In this document: positions 27,337 to 41,500 of the stretch, piece after piece
Position numbering within the stretch: the stretch's first letter is position 1
Layout: each line of letters begins with the position of its first letter
DNA from: Escherichia coli
GTDB lineage: Bacteria; Pseudomonadota; Gammaproteobacteria; Enterobacterales; Enterobacteriaceae
Strand: one strand, 5' to 3'
Assembly: GCF_050920415.1 (NCBI RefSeq)
Contig: NZ_CP169310.1
DNA length: 64,000 nt
Translations under genes and position numbers: made by a program
The notes under the pieces: model-generated
What the model saw: the letters and a program-made list of their open reading frames with translations, nothing else
Database searches by the model: none
What the model was told of the DNA's origin: nothing

Positions 27337-28509
27337 TTAATCTCGTGAATATATATCACGAGTATATACTTTATCTCTGACATCCATTAATTCATCTGTA
27401 ATTCTGTTCGCGAGTATAATGTCTGACTTTTTTTTGAATACAGGCAATTCATTGACTAATATTAAATCACTTACTGTTTTATTTTGCAATATTGGTTCAT
27501 ATATAATAATAGATATGTCTCTTGACTTTAGTTGACGGATGATATCCATAACGGCAGACTCACGGAAGTTATCTGAACCATTTTTCATAATAACTCGATA
27601 AAAACCCACTACTTTATGTTTTTTTTCCAATACTCTCTGTACAATAAAAGATTTACGTGTATCGTTTGCTCTCACTGTAGCAGTAATAATATCGCAGTGT
27701 ATATTTAGTTTATCATAGTTTGCTTTCAGTTGTTTCGTATCTTTTGGCAGACAATATCCACCATAACCAAATGATGGGTTATTATAATAATCACCAATTC
27801 TTCTATCCAGACAGACACCTCTGATTATATCTTTAGTGTTCAGCCCCGTAATTTCAGCATAGGTATCAAGTTCATTGAAAAATGCCACTCTTGTAGCGAG
27901 AAAAGCATTGGAAAATAGTTTTATTGCTTCAGCTTCTGCAGGCTCTGTGAACAAAACGGGTACATCCCTTTTCATTGCAGCATTTTTCATAATACTGGCA
28001 AAATGCCTCGCGCACTCTGAACGCTCTCCGATAATAATTCGAGATGGATAGAGATTATCATATAGTGCTTTCCCTTCACGTAAGAATTCTGGCGAAAATA
28101 TTATTTTGTCAGTGCAATATTTATGTCTGACTTTTTTTGTAAATCCAACAGGGATCGTTGATTTAATGATTATCACTGCCTGTGGATTAAATTTTACCAC
28201 ATCTTCTATAACTGACTCCACAGAAGCAGTATCAAAGAATCCTGTATTAGGATCATAATCAGTTGGAGTAGCAATTATAACATAATCAGCATCTAGGTAA
28301 GCTTCACTTTTATGCGTGGTTGCTTTAAAACAAATATTCCCATTTTGGAATACCTCCCGTATTTCATCATCATCAAGCGGTGAAATTCGTTTGTTCAACT
28401 GCTCAACCCTAATGGCATCAATATCAAATGCCGTCACATTATGATAACGTGCAAGAAGTAGTGCATTGGATAACCCAACGTATCCAGTTCCTGAAACGGT
28501 AATATTCAT
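27337..28509 (-). CDS. ugd: UDP-glucose 6-dehydrogenase
   Basis: 390 aa; [20 protein letters not shown]...[24 protein letters not shown]...[14 protein letters not shown] is collinear with E. coli Ugd. Last gene of the operon. Confidence 0.9.
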
Positions 28510-28540
28510 ATTTCACACCATAAAAATAACGATTATTCAG

Positions 28541-29881
28541 TTAAATTTTTATTTCTACTTCTAGACCGACTGAATATGCAGGGGAACTGCGGGGAGAATT
28601 TTCAGTAGATGATGCCCGAAAACGCTCTGATGGCATAAACATCCCTAGCAATAGCTCAGTTTTTATATTTTTACTAAATTCGTAGCCCCAGATAAGATCT
28701 ATTTCACTCCCGAGATCCAGAGTAGAACTATTGTCATAACGGGACTTCAGGTCTGGATCATGAGAAGATAAAAAATCCCTGTCTGATTGTCTATAATAAT
28801 GATATACAAGATCCAGTGAACTGCTTGGGGATATATCCATTCCAGTGCCAACCGTCAGGATACGTATATTTGTCAACTCTGGAGATAATGTATTACCATA
28901 AATACTGAATTTAGTATTTCCACCAAAGCTGGCTTCATTCGACTGCAATCCGGTCTGATGATATTTTTTACTGGCTATGGCGTAACCCAGAGTAAAGCGG
29001 CTGCGCGATGGACTGTTATGAATCCAGGTAAGCCCTGCATCAATTACCCTCCCCTGATATTTTTTTTCGGATTTTTCTGCATACATTCCTCCGACCTCCA
29101 GCCAGTGCCGCCATCCCGTATCCGATGTACTGTGGGAACGTATCCCGTAAAAAGACTGACGCTCATATACATCATGCGTGTTTTTATTTACAGCAAAATA
29201 AATACCGGTATCCCAGTCCTTTTCCACACTGTACTGCAAAAATGCAGATTGTACGGATATCACACTTTTGTTACGTGTTGTATCATCAAGCAAATCTCGC
29301 TGCCAGTAATTCACACGTCCTGCCACCATCTCCACCTGCCAGTCATCTTTTTTCCAGCGCCCCCATATACCATCAAGATTTTCATCAAAAAGCCATTCTC
29401 TGACATCGCGGTACAGCCACCGCCCGGCTCGAATTTCTGCTCCGACTTCACGCAAACTTCCCCCTATATATCCCTGAGTCAGTTCCAGTCGGGTTTTATG
29501 TTCTTCTGGTTTACCGGAATCCCTCCTGGTTTTGTTTTTCAGTTCAGCTTCCGCCACACCATACAGAGAAGACTTTCTGGCAATCTCAATTCTTAAACGA
29601 TATTGTGGCTCAAATTCATGTCGGTTTTCCTGCTTTTGTCCCTTCCTTAATGTTCTGTTCCGCCAGCTCTCGCCTTCCAGCTTCATTGTAGAATGAAACC
29701 GTATCAGTTGTTCCCGGTTACTTCTGTCCCCGGACAGACTGTTTTTTTTTGGACGAAATAACTCATTGTCAACAGACTCTGAAGCCTGTACCGGAACTAC
29801 TCCACAAACAAAAAACAGAAGAAAATAACCACAGAATCGACCGGAACCGTTTCTGAACATAATTAAAAATACTCCATGCAC
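28541..29881 (-). CDS. Outer-membrane beta-barrel, AlgE/alginate-export-family-like (the start is more likely the ATG at 29860)
   Basis: Signal-peptide-like MFRNGSGRFCGYFLLFFVCGVVPVQA|SE, with alternating beta-strand pattern throughout. The C-terminal LGSEIDLIWGYEFSKNIKTELLLGMFMPSERF...VGLEVEIKI resembles the alginate_exp motif (LG.E.DL......l......g.F.PG..F). Confidence 0.55.
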   Translation of the reverse strand: MHGVFLIMFRNGSGRFCGYFLLFFVCGVVPVQASESVDNELFRPKKNSLSGDRSNREQLIRFHSTMKLEGESWRNRTLRKGQKQENRHEFEPQYRLRIEIARKSSLYGVAEAELKNKTRRDSGKPEEHKTRLELTQGYIGGSLREVGAEIRAGRWLYRDVREWLFDENLDGIWGRWKKDDWQVEMVAGRVNYWQRDLLDDTTRNKSVISVQSAFLQYSVEKDWDTGIYFAVNKNTHDVYERQSFYGIRSHSTSDTGWRHWLEVGGMYAEKSEKKYQGRVIDAGLTWIHNSPSRSRFTLGYAIASKKYHQTGLQSNEASFGGNTKFSIYGNTLSPELTNIRILTVGTGMDISPSSSLDLVYHYYRQSDRDFLSSHDPDLKSRYDNSSTLDLGSEIDLIWGYEFSKNIKTELLLGMFMPSERFRASSTENSPRSSPAYSVGLEVEIKI

Positions 29882-30876
29882 TTTTCACAATAAGCAAGCA
29901 AAAGTAGGGTGGTATGCTTCCGCCCCGGAATTCGGGTACTCAAAAAAATATGCCGGGCCAGTGATAACAACCGGAACCCTTCCGTTTCTTTCACTGTTAC
30001 CCCGGACATGTGGCTGAGCCATGACTCCACAAATGCTGTTTCATGTGCATGGAATATCCGGTAATCCCCCTTATAGCGGATCCCCAGTTCACAGACATGG
30101 GCCAGCCAGTTACCAGCATCCAGAGCGGAAGGCCCGGTACAACTCAGGTCAAAATCAAGAAGGGTCAGACAGCGTCTGTCATTTCGGTTACTGATAATCT
30201 GATCAGGGTAAAAATCACGATGAAGGCAGCTTTTCCGTGTACCCGAAAGAACAGCAGCCACTTCACGCAGCCCTTTCATCAACGCATCGATACGTTTATA
30301 AAGGGCAACGTTTTCCTCTCCTGCTATTGTCAGTCCCTGCTCAAGTACAGACAGTTCATCTGTCAGAGTCCACTGCCGTCCATTCACGACCCGGGCCAGT
30401 TCACCATGCTGCTGAAGGGCAGAAAGTGCGTATCCGACAGCTGTGCCAGTACTTATCTGCTCGTGCCTAGAAAACACATTTGAAATCAGTACGTCTGTCA
30501 GCAAAAGACCATCAACATGACGCTGCAGCCACATTCTCTTTTCCGGCAAAATCATCAACGGTTCCGGCACACTGATCCGGTTCTGCCGATGAAAACCATC
30601 AGACCACAATGCCTGCTGACAGCAGTATGAAAATTTATCAACCCCCTTTTCACGATACTTCCCAACAATCAGCAGAGGAGAAGAACTCCCTCGTCTCCCA
30701 AAATGGTATTCAATCAGAGCCCTACGCCCAGGCTTCTGCCGTAATAACCGGGTACTAATAAGTTGACTATCTGCTGTCACACAAGGGAGTTTGAGGAGAA
30801 AAGATTGCATTTCATGGACAGAACAAAGCTCCTGCAACGTTGCCTGCCACTCAGGAGATAGGTGTAGCTGACGCAC
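29863..30876 (-). CDS. Kinase-fold phosphotransferase (APH / protein-kinase-like superfamily), substrate unknown
   Basis: 337 aa with an N-lobe LLRQKPGRRALIEYHF, a catalytic-loop-like CLHRDFYPDQII and a metal-site-like LTLLDFDLS. Confidence 0.55.
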   Translation of the reverse strand: MRQLHLSPEWQATLQELCSVHEMQSFLLKLPCVTADSQLISTRLLRQKPGRRALIEYHFGRRGSSSPLLIVGKYREKGVDKFSYCCQQALWSDGFHRQNRISVPEPLMILPEKRMWLQRHVDGLLLTDVLISNVFSRHEQISTGTAVGYALSALQQHGELARVVNGRQWTLTDELSVLEQGLTIAGEENVALYKRIDALMKGLREVAAVLSGTRKSCLHRDFYPDQIISNRNDRRCLTLLDFDLSCTGPSALDAGNWLAHVCELGIRYKGDYRIFHAHETAFVESWLSHMSGVTVKETEGFRLLSLARHIFLSTRIPGRKHTTLLLLAYCEKCMEYF

Positions 30877-32176
30877 AGATATCCTCCACTCTGTTCAGTA
30901 ACAGTTCTGCTTTTTTCGGCCAGTAGGCATCCCGTTTACGAAAAGGCTCCACAACAAGACACATCAGCGCTTTTGCGGTATACCATTCGATATCAAAAGC
31001 ATTGATCTTTCGTTCCATTTTGTATCCGGCAAGCAGTGCGTCATGAATTCCTCTTGCCTGAGCAGCGGTGAGCTCTCCGTTAATGACATCCATTTCAGTC
31101 CGGGCAATAAAGCTGCCGGGATCACCAGCAGGATGACCATATACACAACGATCCCAGTCGATGATATTCACACTCCGGCCATCCTCTGCAACGATAACCT
31201 GATCAGCAGAAAAATCTCCGTGCAAAAGAACCTGCTCATGGCTCAGCCATTCAGATAACGCCTTCAGACGAAGAATACAATGACTAAAACGTTCCGCGAG
31301 CTCTGGATAAAGTGCAGTCACCATGCCATGTTCCTGCCAGAGCTGCTGGAGCGCCTCCCGGCAGGTTTGTTTCTCTGGCAGGAAATAAGGCTCATTATGG
31401 ATCTTGGCCAGTGACTTTCCAGTCAACGTGACCAAACTGAGATATTCCTGACCATGCAGAAAATAATCCAGACTTTTTCCCGCTATCCATCGGGTAGCGA
31501 TCAGTCTGTCTGTTTCATTCACCCCCAGAAGTTCAATATGAGCCAGAGAGGATCCGGCCTGGCTTCCCCGTAACTGACGAAAAAACTCTTTTTCTGCCGC
31601 ACAACGAATGACCGCAAAAGGATGTTCATCTCTATAAACACCAATGACACAACGACGCCCGGGTTTGTAACGCAAAAAATGCCAGCGTTCCCGCTCTTGT
31701 CCGGTGACTGAGCCTCGTGCATTCTGCAGCAGTGCTGTATATTTATTATTATACAGTGCGGCCAGGCATAACTTGCGATCCAGTTGTGGTGAAGAAATAA
31801 ATGCAGCCAGTTCATCAAGTAATACAGGGGTTTCAGGCCAGTCACTGGTATTTTTCCCGTCAGAAACTAATCGACTGCAATAAGATATAAATCTGGAGCG
31901 CGTCAGCGCTCTGACAAAACAAAAATACGGTATCTCATCAGCAATATAGAGCGTCACCCCCACGACACAACTGGTTTTAGGTTTGTAACGGATGTAGGTA
32001 ACGCTTACACGCTTCAGGGATAAAAAAGGCTTTTGCTGTCGCAGAACGCCAGTCAGCACCGTTTCGTCAAGTAGTGCAGCAAGCCCGGGCAGCATGGAAT
32101 CCCGGCTAACAAGAGCGCGCTCAACATCATTCAGCATTCCCTTTTCCCTCCTTCTGCAGTAACCACAGTTCTGCAT
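30851..32176 (-). CDS. Kinase-fold phosphotransferase with an extra N-terminal pseudo-N-lobe (the start may be the ATG at 32137)
   Basis: 441 aa with two KP(K/G)..C.(V/I)GV segments (YIRYKPKTSCVVGV; FLRYKPGRRCVIGVY), then LLHGDFSADQVIV and NIIDWDRCVYGHPAGDPG (APH-type HGD....N/D and DWD motifs). Confidence 0.55.
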   Translation of the reverse strand: MQNCGYCRRREKGMLNDVERALVSRDSMLPGLAALLDETVLTGVLRQQKPFLSLKRVSVTYIRYKPKTSCVVGVTLYIADEIPYFCFVRALTRSRFISYCSRLVSDGKNTSDWPETPVLLDELAAFISSPQLDRKLCLAALYNNKYTALLQNARGSVTGQERERWHFLRYKPGRRCVIGVYRDEHPFAVIRCAAEKEFFRQLRGSQAGSSLAHIELLGVNETDRLIATRWIAGKSLDYFLHGQEYLSLVTLTGKSLAKIHNEPYFLPEKQTCREALQQLWQEHGMVTALYPELAERFSHCILRLKALSEWLSHEQVLLHGDFSADQVIVAEDGRSVNIIDWDRCVYGHPAGDPGSFIARTEMDVINGELTAAQARGIHDALLAGYKMERKINAFDIEWYTAKALMCLVVEPFRKRDAYWPKKAELLLNRVEDICASATPIS

Positions 32177-33941
32177 AGCGTCCCTGTCGTGCCATCAGAG
32201 AATGGTGATTGCCTCGCTCCGTTATTTTTCCCTGCTCCATGAAAATAACTTCATCAGCCTGAGCGGCCAGAGATAAATCATGTGTGATAATCAGTGCTGT
32301 TTTATTCTTGAGGAGTCTTTTCAGCTCTGTAAAGACCGCCAGTTCATTTATACTATCCAGCCCTACACCTGGTTCATCAAGCAGAATAAAAGGCGTATTC
32401 AGGAGAATCACCCGGGCAATTGCTATGCGCTGTCGCTGCCCTCCGGAAAGCGTATTTCCACGTTCTCCTACTATAGTATTATATCCCTGTGGTAGCCCGC
32501 TGATGAACTCATGTGCATTGGCCTGTCTGGCCGCTGCAATTATTTCATCATCACTGAAGGTCTTTCCTGCTCCCAGCGTAATATTATCCCGAATACTGTA
32601 TCCGAATAACAGGGGCTCCTGAGGTAGATATCCAATCCTCTGACGCAGAGATGTCACACAAAACTCGTGCAACTCATTCTTTCCCAAAAGGATACGACCA
32701 GAATCCGGCTCATATAACCGTAACAATAAACGGCTGAGCGTGGATTTTCCAGCCCCCGAGGGTCCGGTCACTGCCAGAGTATGACCCGACGGGAGATGGA
32801 AACTGACATTATGAAGAGTTCTACCGCACTCTCCATTCTTTCCCTCTCGGTAAGTGAAACTAACATTTTCAAAGCGAATATCCGGCATCTCTGATAACGG
32901 CAGTTTTTTTCCCTCAACAGAGTATTCTACTGGCAGATAATGCAGTAACCCTGCAACCCTTTCTCCAGCTGTAAATGCCCTGATCAGACGCGTACTGTAT
33001 CTTGCAAACTCACGTACAGGACGGAACATATTTTTCAGGTAGGATAAAAAAACCAGTAATTCTCCGGCTGACATTTTTCCGCTCAGAACACTTCTGGCTC
33101 CCAGCAGTAATACCATAGCTGTGATCCCCGCAATCAACAGTTCAATCAGACACTCCAGCCCGACAGCCTGTTTTCTGGCTTTCACATTCTGTTGTAGACT
33201 CTGTCGTTCCGGTCCCTCAAATGCCCTTATGGCATCTTTCTCCAGTGCCATGGCCTGAACTGTTGCTATCGCAGTCATGAACTCTGCTGAACGGGCAGCA
33301 AGTTCCCCTTCATGCTGTCTCTGAACCCGGTTGACATCTCTGATCCGTCTTCCTCTCCAGACTGTCACCAGCACAAGAAGTGGAACCGGAAGCAATGCTA
33401 CCACTGTCAGTTGCCAGTTCAGCCAGAGCATGATGCCGGCCATACCAGTGAACACTGTAAGGCTAGATAACAGAGGCATTACAGCTGTCACCATCGCATC
33501 ACGCATCATTCCGATATCATTTATCAGTCTCATAGTCAGATCACCGGCTCTCAACTCCTGATGAGCTGAAAGGGGTAATCTTAGCAGATGTGTAAACAGT
33601 GACTTCCGGATAATGCTCAGGATCCTGCTTCCGGCCAAGGCCATTCTGGTTGCGGTGAAATAGCCACATAATCCCTTTAGCACAGCTATAGCAATAACAC
33701 CCAGAGCACATCCCGGTAACAGATAGTCTTGGATAGTGTCATTCCCGACCGAAAACCAAGAAAAGTCATCATATCTGGCTTTTCCCAGAACAAAATCCAC
33801 AGCAAGTGCTAATGGCCAGGGTTCCAGTAACCGGATAATACTGGTCAGAAGTAATGTCAGAAATACACTTGACAACAGCATCTTCTGTGTCCGGATGGCC
33901 GGCCAGAACGTTCGTAATACCTGCTGATGTTCAGACTTCAT
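32127..33941 (-). CDS. Fused TMD-NBD ABC exporter (MsbA / NdvA-ChvA type half-transporter)
   Basis: 604 aa with six N-terminal hydrophobic segments, Walker A GPSGAGKST, signature LSGGQRQR and Walker B FILLDEPG. Confidence 0.85.
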   Translation of the reverse strand: MKSEHQQVLRTFWPAIRTQKMLLSSVFLTLLLTSIIRLLEPWPLALAVDFVLGKARYDDFSWFSVGNDTIQDYLLPGCALGVIAIAVLKGLCGYFTATRMALAGSRILSIIRKSLFTHLLRLPLSAHQELRAGDLTMRLINDIGMMRDAMVTAVMPLLSSLTVFTGMAGIMLWLNWQLTVVALLPVPLLVLVTVWRGRRIRDVNRVQRQHEGELAARSAEFMTAIATVQAMALEKDAIRAFEGPERQSLQQNVKARKQAVGLECLIELLIAGITAMVLLLGARSVLSGKMSAGELLVFLSYLKNMFRPVREFARYSTRLIRAFTAGERVAGLLHYLPVEYSVEGKKLPLSEMPDIRFENVSFTYREGKNGECGRTLHNVSFHLPSGHTLAVTGPSGAGKSTLSRLLLRLYEPDSGRILLGKNELHEFCVTSLRQRIGYLPQEPLLFGYSIRDNITLGAGKTFSDDEIIAAARQANAHEFISGLPQGYNTIVGERGNTLSGGQRQRIAIARVILLNTPFILLDEPGVGLDSINELAVFTELKRLLKNKTALIITHDLSLAAQADEVIFMEQGKITERGNHHSLMARQGRYAELWLLQKEGKGNAE

Positions 33942-35100
33942 CCAATCCTCCAGTCAGCAGCGTAATATCGGCATATAACCAGATTTTCCTAAGCACATTC
34001 TCCCAGCTATTCTGTTTCACATATAGACCTCCGGCTTCCCCCATTTTCCGGCACAACGAAGGGGAGTCAGCCAAAGTGATAATTGCATCAGATAGTGCTG
34101 ACGGTGATTCTGGTGGGATCAGAAGTCCGGTTTTTTCATGCTTTACAATGCTATCAAGATCTCCGGTTCGAGATGTGATTACTGGCAATTCTGCCGCCAT
34201 ATATTCATAAATTTTAAGAGGCGAAAAATAAAAATCATCGAAATGCGGATAGGGAGCAACCCCCGCATCAGCACAAGCAAGCAATGCAGGAACATCACAA
34301 TGAGCAACACCACCATGAAATACCACTGCGTTATCTACACCAGCACTCCGGAAAGCATTCTCCAGTGCTGGACGCTCCGGTCCATCCCCGATGATAGAAA
34401 GACTAATATCTGTTCTCTGACGACGCAGTAAAATAAACGCTTCTGCCAAGGTATCCATCCCGTGCCAGGGCTTCAGGGTTCCGGAAAATACCACAGTAAA
34501 AACGCTACCCCGCGCCATGTTTTTTTTATAAAAAGAAGCCGGATTCACGCCGTTTCGGACAACATGGACTTTTCCTTCTGTTGCAGGTAATGTCTCCAAC
34601 CAACGACGGATACCGGGCGAAACTGCTATCACCGTACTGGCATACTCCAGTACAAGCTCCAGTACTTGATAAGCTTCATGCTCCATCACCATCTTTCGCC
34701 AGCGTTTCTGCTCCAGCGGAAGGGGAGCATTAACCTCCAGTATGCCCGGGATCCCTGCATTCCGGGCATATTCCATCCCGGCAAAACTCCAGAGAGAATA
34801 GCGCTCATAAACAACATCAAAAGGACCGGCAGACACCAACCTACTCTTCAGTTCTTGATTTCCCCTGAGTGCTTGACTGGCTTTTTCCTCATCTGAATCT
34901 GTTCCGGATAAATCAAAAAGAGGGACAACCCTGACAGCACGAAATTCTTCCGGTACTGGCGAAAATCCCCGGCAGGTAAACAATGTCACATCCATACCGG
35001 CGTTCAGCATTTCCCTGAGCATTCCCTGGATATGAATGGAAGCTCCTTTATATCCAAAAACAGGAATACCAGGATCTGCACAAACATAGGCCACTCTCAC
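33931..35100 (-). CDS. GT4-family glycosyltransferase
   Basis: 389 aa; MRVAYVCADPGIPVFGYKGASIHIQ..., with a C-terminal E-x7-E-type region KIYEYMAAELPVITSRTGDLDSIVKHEKTGLL. Confidence 0.8.
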   Translation of the reverse strand: MRVAYVCADPGIPVFGYKGASIHIQGMLREMLNAGMDVTLFTCRGFSPVPEEFRAVRVVPLFDLSGTDSDEEKASQALRGNQELKSRLVSAGPFDVVYERYSLWSFAGMEYARNAGIPGILEVNAPLPLEQKRWRKMVMEHEAYQVLELVLEYASTVIAVSPGIRRWLETLPATEGKVHVVRNGVNPASFYKKNMARGSVFTVVFSGTLKPWHGMDTLAEAFILLRRQRTDISLSIIGDGPERPALENAFRSAGVDNAVVFHGGVAHCDVPALLACADAGVAPYPHFDDFYFSPLKIYEYMAAELPVITSRTGDLDSIVKHEKTGLLIPPESPSALSDAIITLADSPSLCRKMGEAGGLYVKQNSWENVLRKIWLYADITLLTGGLDEV

Positions 35101-36344
35101 TGAACTCTCTCCTGTATTCCTGCCTGAATTGCATCCTCAAATATTTCACGCAGTCGCCGGGTGTTACGATCAATATCAAATGCATCTTCAATTCGTTTTC
35201 TCGCATTCAGCGCCAGATACTTCCTCAGCACAGCATCACCAGCCATTCTTTCAATGGCATCAGCCATTACACCCGGTTTTTCAGGATCAATACAGAATCC
35301 AGTGTGGCCGTCAGTCACCAGTTCAGGGATCCCGGCAACCCGGGTAGAAATAACAGGCAATCCCTGCGCCATGGCCTCCAGTAATACTGTCGGCAACCCA
35401 TCCCGGTCCCCATCACTACTGATAATGCAGGGAGCAACCAGCATCGTGGCCCGGTGCATAGCCATTTTCACATATCCCTGAGGTTGGGCTCCGGTCAGTG
35501 TGATGACAGACGACAGACCACTCTCTTCAACCTGTCGCCTCAGCATCTCTTTTAGAGGACCATCTCCCACTAAAGTGCAGTGAAAATTCATTCCCCGACA
35601 ATACAACAAACGCAGCGCTTCAATCAGCGTACTGAAGCCCTTTTTAACGACCAAACGTCCCACCGCTAATATTTCAGTGTTTTCCGGCCCTATGAGATTG
35701 TCGCGACACAGGTATTGTTGTAAATCAATACCGTTATAAAGCCTCTCCAGTGAAGCCAGATTTCCACCATACTTTTTCTGTAACCAGGCACAATTATAAT
35801 CTGATACAGTAATCACCCGGCTCGCATCCCGGAGCTTCAGGGAAATTGCAGAGTCTTCAGGATAATCAAAATAAATATCTTTCGCATGTGCGGTAAAGCT
35901 GTACGTGATCCCTGCGAGTTTTGCTGCCAAGCGAGCGACTGTGGTCGCTTTTGTAGCAAAATGTGCATGAAGATGCCTGATCCCTCTTTCCTGTACAGTT
36001 GCTGCCAACATCACTGCCTGAGCAAATTCGTGTACATGATTATATCCGGGATCGGAAAAACATCCGGAAAGTTCCGGTAGTAACGGAAAAGAACGGCGCA
36101 GTAAATCATGATAATATTCAGCATTATATTGCCTAGAATTAAAACGAGTTACCGGTGCTTTTACCCGGGAAATAGATTCCTGAAAAAAAGCCTCCTGAAC
36201 ATCTCCAAGGGCGAAAATATCCAGCTTCATTCCGGCTCGTTCATGAGCGAGAATTTCATTGACAATAAATGTTTCTGAAAAGCGGGGATAGCGTTTAACC
36301 ACATATCCGACATAAGGGTGTTTATTATCCATTACACTCTCCAT
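35097..36344 (-). CDS. GT4-family glycosyltransferase (WcaL-like architecture)
   Basis: 415 aa; ...GDGPLKEML...GLPTVLLEAMAQGLPVISTRVAGIPELVTDGHTGF. There is a 4-nt ATGA overlap with the next gene. Confidence 0.8.
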   Translation of the reverse strand: MESVMDNKHPYVGYVVKRYPRFSETFIVNEILAHERAGMKLDIFALGDVQEAFFQESISRVKAPVTRFNSRQYNAEYYHDLLRRSFPLLPELSGCFSDPGYNHVHEFAQAVMLAATVQERGIRHLHAHFATKATTVARLAAKLAGITYSFTAHAKDIYFDYPEDSAISLKLRDASRVITVSDYNCAWLQKKYGGNLASLERLYNGIDLQQYLCRDNLIGPENTEILAVGRLVVKKGFSTLIEALRLLYCRGMNFHCTLVGDGPLKEMLRRQVEESGLSSVITLTGAQPQGYVKMAMHRATMLVAPCIISSDGDRDGLPTVLLEAMAQGLPVISTRVAGIPELVTDGHTGFCIDPEKPGVMADAIERMAGDAVLRKYLALNARKRIEDAFDIDRNTRRLREIFEDAIQAGIQERVQ

Positions 36345-36354
36345 GCCATTGATT

Positions 36355-37515
36355 TTAATTATTTTCTCTCCGCGCTGTAAATATCGCGTTCATTTTTTCT
36401 GTAAAGGAATGCAGCCCATTCAGACTGAGGTAAAGTCGTGGATCTGAAGGACACCAGTCGGAAATCAGCCAATCAGTTATTGACTGTGGCGTCAGACTGT
36501 CCGGATGCAAACATGTAACCAGATTCTTTTCTGCCATCCGTGAAGCACGTATCCATTGCTCAAGACGAGGAACAATACGGGGAATAATCAATGCCCGTTT
36601 CCGTAATGAAAGAATTTCCCGTAAGGTGTTATATCCCCCCATTGCCACCACGCTGTGCGTATGCTGTAGAAGAAAAAGAGGATCAGATACAAAACGAATA
36701 ATATGTAAATCATTACGCATGGACGCAATACGCTGTAATGATGTCACTTCCTCCCGAGCCATCTGGCTACCGGTAAGAATAACACCGTCCATCCCTGGCG
36801 GTAACAATGTCTCTGCAAATACAGATGCAAGGTGGTAGCCATCCTGCCCTCCCCCTGTAAGACATAATACGAATGGACGAGAAATCAGAGACTGAAATTG
36901 CTCATCCTGTAACACCGATGGAGATAATGGAACATCCGGATATCCAAGAAAACTGATTTTTCGGTATACTGATGGTTCCGGAGCAAGATCAAGCGACAAA
37001 TCATAGAATGAACGATCGCCATAAATCCATATATCAGAATAATACTGACGGACAATCGTATAATTATCTGCAGCATGCCATTGATGACGAACAACTGATG
37101 GTTCATCAATAATATCCCTGAGTCCAAGAATCAGATGCACATTATCATCAACCAATTCCGGAAGCACCGGCAGCAGTTCTGATAACGCCCCAGCAGGTAC
37201 ATTATCCACAACCATTACATCCGGACAATATTCACTCAATGCAGCTCGAATTATCTGTCTCCGAAGGCTAACCAATTTCCGGGTATTATTGCCCAGTGAC
37301 CGGGGGTGATATTTGCCGCACAACGTTTTGGCATAGGCTGGTAACGTAAGAATATCTGAGCGTTCAGGTAGTGTAAATAATCCGGATTCACGGGCACTGT
37401 TAATAATCAAAATTTCAGTATCAGAAAACCTTTTCTGAACTGCTCCTGCAAGCAAAAGATTTCGCCGTAAATGCCCAAGCCCCATCGTATCATGAGAATA
37501 AAACGCCAGCTTCAT
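36355..37515 (-). CDS. GT-B-fold glycosyltransferase (MurG/GT28-like, COG4671-type); first gene of the operon
   Basis: 386 aa; MKLAFYSHDTMGLGHLRRNLLLAGAV... and ...LCLTGGGQDGYHL...VVAMGGYNTLREILSLRKRALIIPR resemble MurG/UDP-glycosyltransferase C-terminal motifs. Confidence 0.6.
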   Translation of the reverse strand: MKLAFYSHDTMGLGHLRRNLLLAGAVQKRFSDTEILIINSARESGLFTLPERSDILTLPAYAKTLCGKYHPRSLGNNTRKLVSLRRQIIRAALSEYCPDVMVVDNVPAGALSELLPVLPELVDDNVHLILGLRDIIDEPSVVRHQWHAADNYTIVRQYYSDIWIYGDRSFYDLSLDLAPEPSVYRKISFLGYPDVPLSPSVLQDEQFQSLISRPFVLCLTGGGQDGYHLASVFAETLLPPGMDGVILTGSQMAREEVTSLQRIASMRNDLHIIRFVSDPLFLLQHTHSVVAMGGYNTLREILSLRKRALIIPRIVPRLEQWIRASRMAEKNLVTCLHPDSLTPQSITDWLISDWCPSDPRLYLSLNGLHSFTEKMNAIFTARRENN

Positions 37516-37748
37516 ATCATCAATAAATTTAAAATGTCAATATTTCTATCATTTTTAAATAGCTACCGCACTAATTATAACAATTAGCATTAAACTTTTT
37601 AACCCATTTTGTTTTTAGATTTAATGTTTTAAATACTGGCAGATACTCAGCAATTTTCCCAACGAGATAAAATGCTATTATTTTTTAACATCCTTTTACA
37701 CCAGTACCCAAGTATATAAAATAAATAATAAGTCATCTTTCTAAATAA

Positions 37749-37797
37749 TTTTAACTAATTGTGTACTCCTCTTTAAAATGTGCACAATTAGTTAAAA
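37749..37797. promoter_or_regulatory. Near-perfect 18-bp inverted repeat (13-nt spacer) upstream of the glycan operon; candidate operator shared with 52871-52917
   Basis: ttttaactaattgtgtac-N13-gtgcacaattagttaaaa (17/18 complementary). The right arm matches gtgcacaattagctaaca at 52902-52919 in 16/18 positions. Confidence 0.5.
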
Positions 37798-37909
37798 CTT
37801 GGCTTCTACATTCTCTAGATGTACACATCCCTGTTTGCAAGGCTGAGGTGTACTGGCAATAGCGGACACCACCATTTGTTCTTTTTCTAAGCAGCCATCT
37901 GATAATATT

Positions 37910-38350
37910 TTATCCTGAAGGCTGCCGGGGAGATATTCCCAGACGAGAGTGACGACGCTGACGATTGTAAAAAATCTCAATGTATTCCCGTATTACTGAG
38001 ATGGCCTCATCCCAGCTCTTAAAACGATAGTTGCTCAGACTTTCATTTTTCAGTGTTCCCCAGAAGCTTTCCAACGAAGCGTTGTCGTAACAGTTACCTT
38101 TACGCGACATTGATGTTTTCAGACCAAACTGTTCCTGTATGGCCCTGTAATCGTATGCTCAGTACTGTGAACCACGATCGGAGTGGTGGATTATCCCGGC
38201 AGGTGGGCGCTGGTTCCTGAGCACCATAAACAGGGCTTTACCCGTCAACTCTTTCGTCATGCGCTCTCCCATGGCGTAACCGACAATTTCGCTCGTATAA
38301 ACATCTTTGACGCCAGCGATATACAGCCATCCTTCCCGGGTGGCAACATA
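37910..38350 (-). pseudogene. IS3-family OrfB 3' portion (frameshifted)
   Basis: MSRKGNCYDNASLESFWGTLKNESL...YNRQRRHSRLG. Upstream frames read ...GWLYIAGVKDVYTSEIVGYAMGERMTKELTGKAL...HHSDRGSQY. Confidence 0.7.
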
Positions 38351-38360
38351 CGTTATATCT

Positions 38361-38480
38361 AGTGGTCAACAAAAACTGGCCACCGCGTTAGAGTTTTTCC
38401 AGTATCGATTTTCCGATTCGTTTGGGGGTAACCCACCGTTATATTCGTGCGGTCTTAGTGCGCTGTAATATCCAACGATA
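38361..38480 (-). mobile_element. IS911 right-end fragment (lacks the terminal TGA)
   Basis: agtggtcaacaaaaactggccaccgcgttagag... is the reverse complement of 61200-61317. Confidence 0.8.
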
Positions 38481-38543
38481 GAGCCTGCGGTAATGCTTAT
38501 TCCCGACGGTTCATGCCTGACAATTACATATAAAAATATTCCG

Positions 38544-38593: not shown

Positions 38594-41500
38594 TCAGAAA
38601 TCATACCGAATACCCAGTCTCCCTTCAGCATCGGTCTTAAAGTAACCATCAAAACTGCTGTTCACTTTTGCCTGTACTGACAGTTTATCTGTCAGCTTTC
38701 CGTTGATACCAAACGAAACGGTATAGCGGTCAGCTTTCTCTGCATCATAGTGACGGGCTTTCCAGTCATCACGTAGGGTCATTCCGGGCATATCGTTAAA
38801 CGTGATATTCCGCCAGATACCTGCCTTCAGCGTCATATTTCCAAATAATTTTTCTGCCTCAACCCCGGCTTTCAGCCACAAGGCATCGCCATCATGAAGC
38901 TCCACGCTCCGCTCCCGGCCCTGCAGACGATTTCCGTCCACCCGTGCACCGTTCAGTGAAACAGTCGGTGTTATCGACATATCAAGAGGGGATGCATACA
39001 TCTTCCACCCGCCACGGATACCCGCTGTCAGGATATGGCTTTTTGCTCTGCCGGACAGGTCACTCAGCTCTCCCTGAATAGTGTAATCTTCTGACAGCTC
39101 CCGGTATCCGACCATACCATCCACAAACAGACCACAGTCAAAGGATTTACCTGCCAGAACATGCACGCCCCACAGGCTGAAATCATCCCGGTAGCCATCT
39201 GTGCTGCTGTGCCCCCGGTAAAACTCTGCCCCCATCCCCCACCAGGTATTACTGGCAGCAGACTGGCGAAATCCCACATTCAGTCCACTCTGGTTTAGGC
39301 TGAAGTCGTCATATCCACCATGACTGTACCCTGTCATGGCCCATACACCACCGTCTGCATCGCTGTTGTCCACCACCTGTGTCCAGCGGTCAGCGCTGTC
39401 GCTGAGAATAAACTCACGGGCGGAAAACATGACACGCGCTTTCTTCAGAAGAGATGTGTTATCCGCGCCCTTAAACAGCGTACTGCCATTCACCGTCGTG
39501 CCCGCATTCTCTCCCGGAGAATCAGGGGAAGGCGTCACACCACTGCTGTTATTCCCTTCAGACACAATACCATCAGCCTCAGTGCTTCCTGTATTACCTG
39601 TATCCGGTGCAACCGGAGAGGTTGTATCTGTCACACCATCACTGACACCCGGTGATATCTGTGATTCTGTTGTTCCGGCATGACTTTTCAGTTGCCAGTA
39701 AACTCTGCCGTCTTTCTCCTGCACCTGTGTAATACCATCAGCCTCAGTGCTTCCTGTATTACCTGTATCCGGTGCAACCGGAGAGGTTGTATCTGTCACA
39801 CCATCACTGACATCCGGTGATATCTGAGATTCTGTTGTTCCGGCATGACTTTTCAGTTGCCAGTAAACTCTGCCGTCTTTCTCCTGCACCTGTGTGTCAG
39901 GGGTATAAACAGTAAACCCCCTGTTCAGGCTGGCAAAGGAGAAGTACCCGTGAGAAGTTCCGACCGGTGCAGATGCCAGAGTCAGGTCATTTTTCAGTGT
40001 GAGAGTCTGGTCAAACAGGGTGGACAGGTCCAGAGTGTTATGTCCGCCAGTTGCCTTATTCAGAATATCAATCCGGTCGCCCGTGTTGTCGGCAGTGCTG
40101 ACACCCATAGCGATATTCATACTGCTGGCATGCAGTGTGTTTACCGTCAGCGTTTTCGGCGACCAGTTGTCTGTCACAAGGGAGAGCGTCCCGCCTTTGC
40201 TTCTGAACGAATCCAGCGTGGAGCTTTTCGTCATATTCCAGTGACTTCGACTAGACAACTCTACATGAGAGCTGGCATGACCGCTGATATCACCATTAAA
40301 GGTTGCGTTCATGATATCCAGTGTCGTCTTCCCGTTCAGGACAGCGCCCCCATTAAACACGCTACGGTCTGCATCCTTCACAGCCTCTGATGTGCCTTCT
40401 TCCAGCGTAAAGGTCGTACCGTTACCGTCGTTTTTGTCGATAAAAACCCGGCTGTCGCCCAGTGTGACCGTCGAATCTGTTGCTTCAAGCATGGTGTTCA
40501 GCGTGGCATTACGGCCAAGGCCAAAATCGGTGTTCTTCAGTGACAGGTTGTCAAAGGTAAAGCTCCGGTTCTCCCAGTCCTCCTGACTGAATGATGTGGG
40601 CTGAGTCAGAACCGAATGGTCTCCACTGGCAGCCAGTTTGTCAGCCACAGACTGAGTATTGTATGCATGGATAACCGGATGCCCCTGCAACGTCAGACGC
40701 CCGTTTTCCTGGGTAAATTTACCGGATATATCAGCGGAGCCATCCATGACCAGTACAGCGCTCTGCCCAACTTCAACCACATTAGTTACATCCACGTTTC
40801 CTTTTAGCTGCCCATGATACAGATATTCTTCTGTATCGAAATCCAGCGTAATAGAGGCATGATTATCAGAATTATTTGCCAGCACAGCACCATAATCTGC
40901 GGCCTTCAGCTGATGAAACGTCAGATCGTTACCATTAACATCCAGAATCCCCCCACGATATCCCCAAGAAATGGTATCCGGGTTTACCTGTCGGTCATCA
41001 GTTAGTACCACAGTCGGTCGGCCACTGGCAATATTTACACTGCTGAAAGCCTGCACCTGTCCTTTACTGTCCGCCTGCTGACTCAGAACAACCTTCCCAT
41101 CCCCGACCTTCAGACCTCCCTCATTGATACCTGTACCCTGTACCGTCAGCGTACCCTCACCGATTTTATGCAGATTGTCACCTGCCTCGCCGTTGACCAG
41201 CCAGTTTACGGACACTCCTTTATCCACAATAATACCAGCCCCAGTCCAGGTACTTCCGTTAGAGGTTGTTACTGTGTAATTATCACGGAACGTCAGGGAA
41301 CCCGCGCCCTGCGAAACCGAATCCTTCAGTTCAATCTGCCCATTCTGCCCCAGAAATTCCAGATTCTTACCGGCATTCAGGTCATTTCCCAGCTGTCCGT
41401 GCATGTCATATGTGATGGTCCCTTGGGTCAGGGTGCCAACTCCGGTGCTGCTGTCAAAGCTCCACTCCAGTACTCCCCCCTCAGATGAACTGAACGTAAC

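Follow-up and report, generated by a model that had tools for sequence, protein, structure and literature searches.

The window, a 64-kb stretch of Escherichia coli DNA that was analysed over its full length, is 100% identical to large IncFIA/FIB plasmids of hybrid Shiga-toxigenic/enterotoxigenic E. coli, e.g., pCFSAN004181P (CP012499). It contains two large operons, two regulator genes and the remnant of an insertion sequence (IS), which are arranged as follows:

27337-37515, minus strand: glycan operon (annotation and Pfam)
37828-38500, minus strand: IS600-like (IS3 family) remnant that forms the right-hand border of site 1 and lies outside the element itself (repeat scan, plasmid BLAST)
44215-44808, minus strand: 197-aa ORF of an unannotated family, called LuxR-like in the first-pass annotation, with a receiver-like domain and a helical C-terminus
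44917-52822, minus strand: K88 (F4)-like chaperone-usher fimbrial operon, divergent from regulator 1 (annotation and Pfam)
52986-53810, plus strand: regulator 1, Rob/Caf1R-like AraC family, with a two-HTH N-terminal and a GyrI-like C-terminal domain (Pfam)
54341-55189, plus strand: regulator 2, its paralogue, 42% identical to regulator 1 and alignable with Rob over the full length

According to Pfam and annotation, the glycan operon encodes a GT28-like protein, two GT4 proteins, an ABC exporter, two APH-type phosphotransferases, an alginate-export-family porin and a nucleotide-sugar dehydrogenase. Between the two operons, a K88-type fimbrial subunit gene is apparently split into two minus-strand ORFs (43111-43368 and 42470-43114) that both match Pfam Fimbrial_K88, and the gene for a 1279-aa S6-family autotransporter protease contains a 165-nt tandem duplication that is 99% identical (39566-39895).

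The first-pass annotation had described one palindromic motif at two places in this DNA, and its description of both was confirmed. Site 1 (37749-37797) reads ttttaactaattgtgtac-N13-gtgcacaattagttaaaa, with arms that are complementary at 17 of 18 positions, and is located 234-282 bp from the ATG of the glycan operon at 37515. Site 2 (52871-52917) reads tttagccaataatgcac-N14-gtgcacaattagctaa, with arms complementary at 13 of 16 positions, and separates the faeC-position gene from the first of the Rob-like regulator genes, which starts with the ATG at 52986. The right arms of the two sites are indeed identical at 16 of 18 positions, and the 12-mer that they share, GTGCACAATTAG, occurs twice exactly in the window and once more with a single mismatch, in the left arm of site 1; the shuffle mean for this 12-mer was 0.43, and three copies were reached in none of 100 shuffles. 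The similarity is restricted to an element of ~49 bp. As the flanking sequences of sites 1 and 2 cannot be aligned, we rejected a longer duplicated promoter segment as its source. The short motif CACAATTAG was likewise discarded as a general motif of the window, where it is unenriched (10 matches versus 17 expected with one mismatch allowed), and the signal thus resides in the full box.

Each arm is a 15-bp marbox-like box, GTGCAC-AWWWA-GCTAA. Read outward, the arms give GTGCAC-AATTA-G(C/T)TAA, in agreement with the marbox core of the MarA/SoxS/Rob family, GCAC-nnWnn-RYYAAA. Both boxes of a pair face outward, one per flanking transcription unit, and their centres are ~32 bp, or three helical turns, apart. 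We built a weight matrix from 81 Salmonella ChIP-seq sites (MarA/SoxS/Rob/RamA) and scored the whole window on both strands (127,972 positions). The four arms ranked 1, 3, 7 and 10 with 15.6, 14.6, 12.0 and 11.8 bits, compared with a true-site median of 11.2, and dropping the two most similar training sites from the matrix changed this little. The chance of four named positions all falling within the top 10 is ~2e-17. The boxes are distributed as follows:

37749-37797, strand not assigned: site 1, inverted pair of marbox-like boxes with the GCAC ends inward and the AAA ends outward
37750-37764, minus strand: left box of site 1, ACACAATTAGTTAAA, forward towards the glycan operon (12.0 bits, rank 7 of 127,972)
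37782-37796, plus strand: right box of site 1, GCACAATTAGTTAAA, an orphan that faces the IS600-like end ~31 bp away (14.6 bits, rank 3 of 127,972)
37568-37587, plus strand: third element CTAATTATAACAATTAG with the overlapping weak box GCACTAATTATAACA (37568-37582, matrix score 9.96, rank 25)
52871-52918, strand not assigned: site 2, inverted box pair flanked by the K88-like fimbrial operon and regulator 1
52871-52885, minus strand: left box of site 2 (15.6 bits, rank 1 of 127,972)
52904-52918, plus strand: right box of site 2 (11.8 bits, rank 10 of 127,972)

The third element was also found where it had been reported, at 37571-37587. It falls inside the leader predicted for the glycan operon, is oriented away from the operon and is invariant across four plasmid lineages, as is most of the leader. 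An ops-like core, GCGGTAGC, overlaps the weak third box in this leader (37562-37569, minus strand) and hints at RfaH-type antitermination, but the window contains two copies versus 1.2 expected by chance. With respect to what we take to be the ops consensus, positions 10-12, in its 3′ part, mismatch at this locus. Further high matrix scores were obtained at 35952-35966 (minus strand), inside the second GT4 gene and ranked 2 in the window, and at 53021-53035 and 54386-54400 (both plus strand), each just within the coding start of a regulator. Upstream of regulator 2, we found only a single moderate box (54254-54268, plus strand), 73-87 bp before the gene, and no inverted partner for it.

Comparison among plasmids showed that site 1 is kept in four lineages with both arms intact and 17 of 18 positions complementary. 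It bears the lineage-specific variant CACAATTAG, which it has in common with site 2 and which is not the generic marbox. The arms of site 2 are kept in three lineages around unrelated spacers (AAACAAAAAGCTCG, AATTAAAAAATATA and AACATGACAGTGA) of a constant length of 13-14 nt, and in two of these three lineages the palindrome is better than that of the window. CP012498 has another fimbrial operon upstream, and the homology begins there at the site 2 pair, which indicates that the element travels with the regulator gene. In the lineage of the window, site 2 is a hybrid, with a left arm of the CATTATTGG variant, as in a third pair described below, and a right arm of the CACAATTAG variant, as in site 1; both of its arms are of the CACAATT(A/G)G type in CP012501 and CP012498. 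Given this hybrid, the two paralogous regulators might each have their own type of box.

The first-pass annotation had also called for a search of the full replicon. Our scan of the 224-kb CP012499 yielded three strong pairs only, one of which lies outside the window:

CP012499 99004-99050 (locus L024 35205-35251): third pair, TTTAGCCAATAATGCAC-N13-GTGCATTATTGGCTAAA, perfect (replicon scan)

The third pair has 17-bp arms identical to the left arm of site 2. It is located ~690 bp upstream of a small gene that heads a type VI secretion cluster, with IS-derived DNA to its right at a distance of ~150 bp. All three pairs are shared by one set of 10 PLSDB plasmids, which also carry the regulators and the glycan operon. 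Of the complete E. coli genomes, 16 carry site 1 together with regulator 1, one has site 1 only and two have the regulator only; the genome that has the glycan operon but lacks regulator 1, and the two that show the reverse, count against joint regulation by this protein. The co-occurrence may stem from common descent, all site 1 plasmids being related. A metagenome scan with the site 1 sequence gave zero matches. A second one with the core palindrome TTGTGCAC-N11-14-GTGCACAA gave 135 matches, of which only one (locus L065) has box-like arms on both sides; the others are chance matches.

An IS terminus, an origin that the first-pass annotation itself had considered, does not account for the motif. 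The IS600-like end begins at ~37828-37843, at least 30 bp past the right arm of site 1. We rejected a terminal inverted repeat or MITE, as there are three copies of the pair per 224-kb plasmid and none lies inside IS sequence. In CP012501 and pN96-1, an IS630 takes the place of the IS600-like DNA beside site 1 and the palindrome is unchanged. The right flank of site 1 is nevertheless IS DNA in every copy found.

Each arm resembles a site for Rob-type proteins in its own right, and the two neighbouring regulators are candidate binders. Both combine the Pfam domains HTH_18/HTH_AraC and GyrI-like/Cass2, i.e., the architecture of Rob, and the Rob alignment covers residues 6-251 of regulator 2. Rob is the best PDB and NCBIfam match of both proteins, yet they score far below the NCBIfam Rob cut-off. 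They are ~41% identical to Caf1R of Y. pestis (267 residues) and 50% identical to a regulator of F18 fimbrial plasmids, and a scan of a genome collection with regulator 1 returned one relative only, in Y. pestis. The predicted recognition helices are invariant in all 8 aligned members, Caf1R included (helix 3, SG(Y/F)SRRYLQ; helix 6, YDSQQTF(T/S)REFKK). Helix 3 is unlike the SKWHLQR of Rob and MarA, and the regulators therefore form a distinct subfamily and are not Rob itself. Two of the helix 3 positions that differ from Rob/MarA contact the GCAC element in the MarA-DNA structure, which counts against a marbox-like site as their target. Both genes are intact in the window and frameshifted or split in the near-identical pCFSAN004180G (CP012500), the strain of which may be a natural regulator mutant.

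Caf1R activates the divergent caf1MA1 chaperone-usher operon as a Rob-like AraC protein (PMC6440114). The caf1R-caf1M intergenic region of Y. pestis pMT1 contains five 15-nt marbox-like repeats (R1-R3, R3′ and R4′), of which R4′ is the Caf1R site and overlaps the -35 element of the promoter PM in a class II arrangement, as established by EMSA and lacZ fusions, and is adjoined by the oppositely oriented R3 (PMC8470410). We read these repeats directly in the Y. pestis locus (L008). Like the Caf1R system (PMC8470410, PMC6440114), the locus studied here has a gene for a Rob-like AraC protein divergent from a chaperone-usher operon and 15-nt GC(A/G)C...AGCTAA repeats, including an inverted pair, in the intergenic region. 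Unlike that system, it has two paralogous regulators and one tight inverted pair instead of five repeats, and the same pair recurs, as far as the sequence tells, at non-fimbrial loci, namely the glycan operon and the vicinity of the type VI secretion cluster. Plasmid-borne AraC family activators that control fimbriae and further virulence genes through a shared asymmetric site are also familiar from Rns, CfaD and AggR of ETEC and EAEC, but these belong to another subfamily that lacks the GyrI-like domain and recognize a different site consensus. LdaA, from the locus for diffuse adherence of atypical EPEC, and AfrR, from the AF/R1 pili, have been named as Caf1R relatives (PMC6440114); by that literature statement alone, they resemble the present regulators as AraC-type proteins encoded next to chaperone-usher adhesin operons, K88-like or related, on virulence elements of E. 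coli.

We inspected the upstream regions of 13 further diverged regulator homologues from plasmids. An outward-facing pair was located 55-91 bp upstream of the regulator start in 6 of them, against a background for such pairs on this plasmid of 0.03 per 450 bp. These six comprise an F18 plasmid (ATTAGCTAAATGTGCAC-N12-GTGCACATTTAGCTAAT), a bovine K88-like locus, a Salmonella Inverness pef-like locus and three further E. coli plasmids with only partly annotated neighbour genes. The remaining 7 of the 13 had no clear pair upstream, which counts against the boxes being the sites of this regulator family. The consensus of 22 aligned family arms is nGT-GCAC-AWWWA-GCTAA-n. On an E. fergusonii plasmid (CP057211, locus L018), a Caf1R-like regulator gene, the product of which is 38% identical, stands directly upstream of polysaccharide deacetylase and GT4 genes and has one box, 70 bp before it, a second case of a Caf1R-like regulator beside glycan genes.

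The boxes share with the marboxes of the mar-sox-rob regulon (Martin et al. 1999; PMC10268841) the GCAC and YYAAA elements at the same spacing. Classical marboxes are single, degenerate and chromosomal, whereas the boxes described here form tightly conserved inverted pairs with extra fixed bases, and their probable reader has a helix 3 of SRRYLQL in place of the SKWHLQR of the marbox readers Rob and MarA. It is doubtful that they are ordinary marboxes for host MarA, SoxS or Rob, i.e., part of the chromosomal stress regulon, with the plasmid regulators not being the main binders. A matrix built from host-type regulators does rank the arms at the top, and the arm GCACAATTAGCTAAC is identical at 14 of 15 positions to the Salmonella leuL-leuO site that MarA, Rob and SoxS bind in ChIP-seq. 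However, the pair is inherited with the plasmid regulator gene across fimbrial operons and genera, the consensus of the family is stricter than that of a marbox (GT before GCAC, AGCTAA, often no third A), and Caf1R itself binds such a box (PMC8470410). Cross-talk with the host may also coexist with recognition by the plasmid regulators.

A different binder had been proposed in the first-pass annotation, which saw the LuxR/GerE-like product of the ORF at 44215-44808 as the more natural candidate for a dimeric protein that could occupy the palindrome as a classical operator. We find this proposal very unlikely. The 197-aa protein has no match in Pfam or NCBIfam, GerE included, even at E ≤ 10, and neither database gave a match for any of 120 homologues. 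In the AlphaFold model (mean pLDDT 82), a receiver-like alpha/beta domain is followed by a four-helix C-terminus, and the best full-length fits are RcsB, EvgA and FixJ; these fits are weak (TM 0.58, E ~8e-3 for RcsB), and none reaches E ≤ 1e-3. The impression of the fold was thus not unreasonable, given this weak resemblance to RcsB/EvgA/FixJ, but no GerE signature is present in the sequence. The receiver-like domain apparently lacks the acidic pocket normally located where strand 1 ends, and the model suggests that the protein may be a divergent regulator.

The operator of a LuxR-type dimer is a compact palindrome of ~20 bp with adjacent half-sites. This geometry is not found here, as the arms are asymmetric 15-bp marboxes of 15-18 bp each in the palindrome, lie 13-14 bp apart and have centres separated by ~32 bp. 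The family of the 197-aa ORF was found in 311 plasmids, mostly of Salmonella and Escherichia, and co-occurs with K88/pef-type loci, a point in its favour. Many of the homologues are located on the same contigs as Caf1R-like regulators. However, the family has no match in Yersinia plasmids, which bear boxes, and because no pig-derived plasmid was present among 60 evenly sampled match rows, it also appears to be absent from F18 plasmids, which carry boxes as well. We do not favour the 197-aa protein as the binder.

That the element acts by its structure, as a DNA cruciform, an RNA hairpin or a recombinase site, is in our view highly improbable. Site 1 folds far better than its shuffles (-13.6 kcal/mol, z = -8.6), the arms show symmetrical co-variation from lineage to lineage, and tyrosine recombinase genes are located nearby on several plasmids. 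The arms of site 2, on the other hand, are two variants with only 13 of 16 positions complementary and fold with a z of only -2.1, yet each is a top-scoring box; a search for a terminator-like site found none, the arms match an independent protein-binding matrix, and Caf1R binds a single repeat (PMC8470410). The central box positions change jointly in the two arms from lineage to lineage despite invariant reading helices, which a simple model of one regulator per box does not explain and which counts against it.

The arrangement of the boxes relative to promoter elements was then compared with the caf locus. For the MarA/SoxS/Rob family, the class II rule is a forward box that overlaps the -35 element. 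PM consists of the -35 hexamer TAAACT, a 17-nt spacer and the -10 hexamer TAAAAT (PMC8470410), and in the Y. pestis sequence these hexamers occupy box positions 12-17 and 35-40. The left box of site 1 is associated with a candidate promoter:

37725-37753, minus strand: predicted class II glycan promoter, with the -35 hexamer TAAAAT at 37753-37748, a 17-nt spacer and the -10 hexamer TATTAT at 37730-37725

A promoter scan returned TTAAAA-18-TATTAT at 37754-37725 on the minus strand. The layout of site 1 is the same as that of R4′ and PM, with the -35 element at box positions 12-17 and the -10 element at 35-40, and from this geometry we predict a transcription start near 37718 and a leader of ~200 nt. 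Such a long leader has to be assumed, as site 1 is located 234 bp from the start codon, and this counts against its use as the glycan promoter. The hexamers at site 2 are weaker and were read by hand (left, TAAATT/TTTAAT; right, TAACAG/TTAAAT); the weakness of the predicted -10 elements counts against promoters there. All four boxes are forward relative to their flanking unit, and the predicted -35/-10 hexamers fit this orientation.

Site 1 could instead be the relic of a divergent regulator promoter that was destroyed by an IS, with the glycan operon transcribed from a nearer promoter. All other family members carry a regulator gene downstream of the right box, and IS DNA begins ~30 bp past the right box of site 1 and differs in kind by lineage; moreover, a good sigma-70 match with an upstream TG, TTAAAA-17-TATAAT at 37602-37574, lies nearer to the gene. 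A decaying relic would nevertheless be at odds with two arms that are intact and complementary at 17 of 18 positions in four lineages, with a left box that has a correctly spaced -35/-10 towards the operon, and with the third pair, which repeats the orphan layout with perfect arms and suggests maintenance by selection. Weighing these points, we regard a relic as unlikely. Both orphan pairs, site 1 and the third pair, abut IS DNA where other family members carry the regulator gene.

Taken together, the sequence comparisons make it probable that the palindromes are paired, marbox-like activator sites of the Caf1R type that are read by the Rob-like regulators of the plasmid. Building on the observed sequence match and its conservation, the regulator homology and the promoter geometry, and inferring from them that the boxes are bound, by how many monomers, where transcription starts, in which direction regulation runs and what induces it, we propose the following model. 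One molecule of regulator 1, possibly also of its paralogue regulator 2, would bind each box, which would overlap the -35 element of the promoter it faces and lead to class II activation, as demonstrated for Caf1R on the caf1M promoter. The left box of site 2 would drive the K88-like fimbrial operon and the right box regulator 1 itself, in an autoregulatory fashion. At site 1, the left box would drive the glycan operon through the leader of ~200 nt, and the right box would be an orphan cut off by the IS. The same regulators would thereby switch on fimbriae and glycan operon together, in response to a signal that may be temperature if the analogy with Caf1R extends that far.

This model retains one half of the co-regulation by a single dimeric protein that was suggested in the first-pass annotation. 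The shared cis-element that joins the fimbrial/regulator region and the glycan operon is supported, because the same box variant is present at both sites, the four arms score in an independent matrix and the element is conserved; a dimer as its binder is not. The Rob-like AraC proteins had been set aside there as monomer-binding, and the evidence points the opposite way. Each arm alone is a full marbox-type site, and Rob-like binders are favoured because the neighbouring regulators are relatives of Caf1R and the pair travels with the regulator gene.

The Caf1R-like regulators are a little-studied class in the literature, in which a binding site has been mapped for Caf1R only. The present comparison provides the family with a cis-signature, an outward-facing marbox-like pair, that extends over K88-like loci of E. 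coli, F18 plasmids, the pef-like locus of Salmonella and caf of Yersinia. A sugar-polymer operon and a locus close to a type VI secretion cluster bear this signature as well on the hybrid STEC/ETEC plasmid, which predicts one plasmid regulon that couples an adhesin, a surface glycan and possibly secretion. Within such a regulon, each of the two paralogous regulators may recognize one of the variants CACAATTAGCTAA and CATTATTGGCTAA in the manner of a two-key code, with site 2 as the hybrid.

The close likeness to host marboxes further raises the question of cross-talk with the mar/sox/rob stress regulon. That the plasmid Rob-like regulators and host MarA, SoxS and Rob read overlapping boxes is a tentative idea that we would not expect to hold, but it would have consequences in both directions. 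Antibiotic and oxidative-stress signals of the host would switch on the plasmid fimbriae, the glycan operon and perhaps the type VI secretion system, and the plasmid regulators would act on chromosomal marboxes (acrAB, micF, leuO), by which a virulence plasmid would alter the intrinsic drug tolerance of its host. For the plasmid itself, the sequence evidence indicates that fimbriae and a sugar-polymer operon, both carried on a virulence plasmid, are probably switched on together by a regulator of a known kind.
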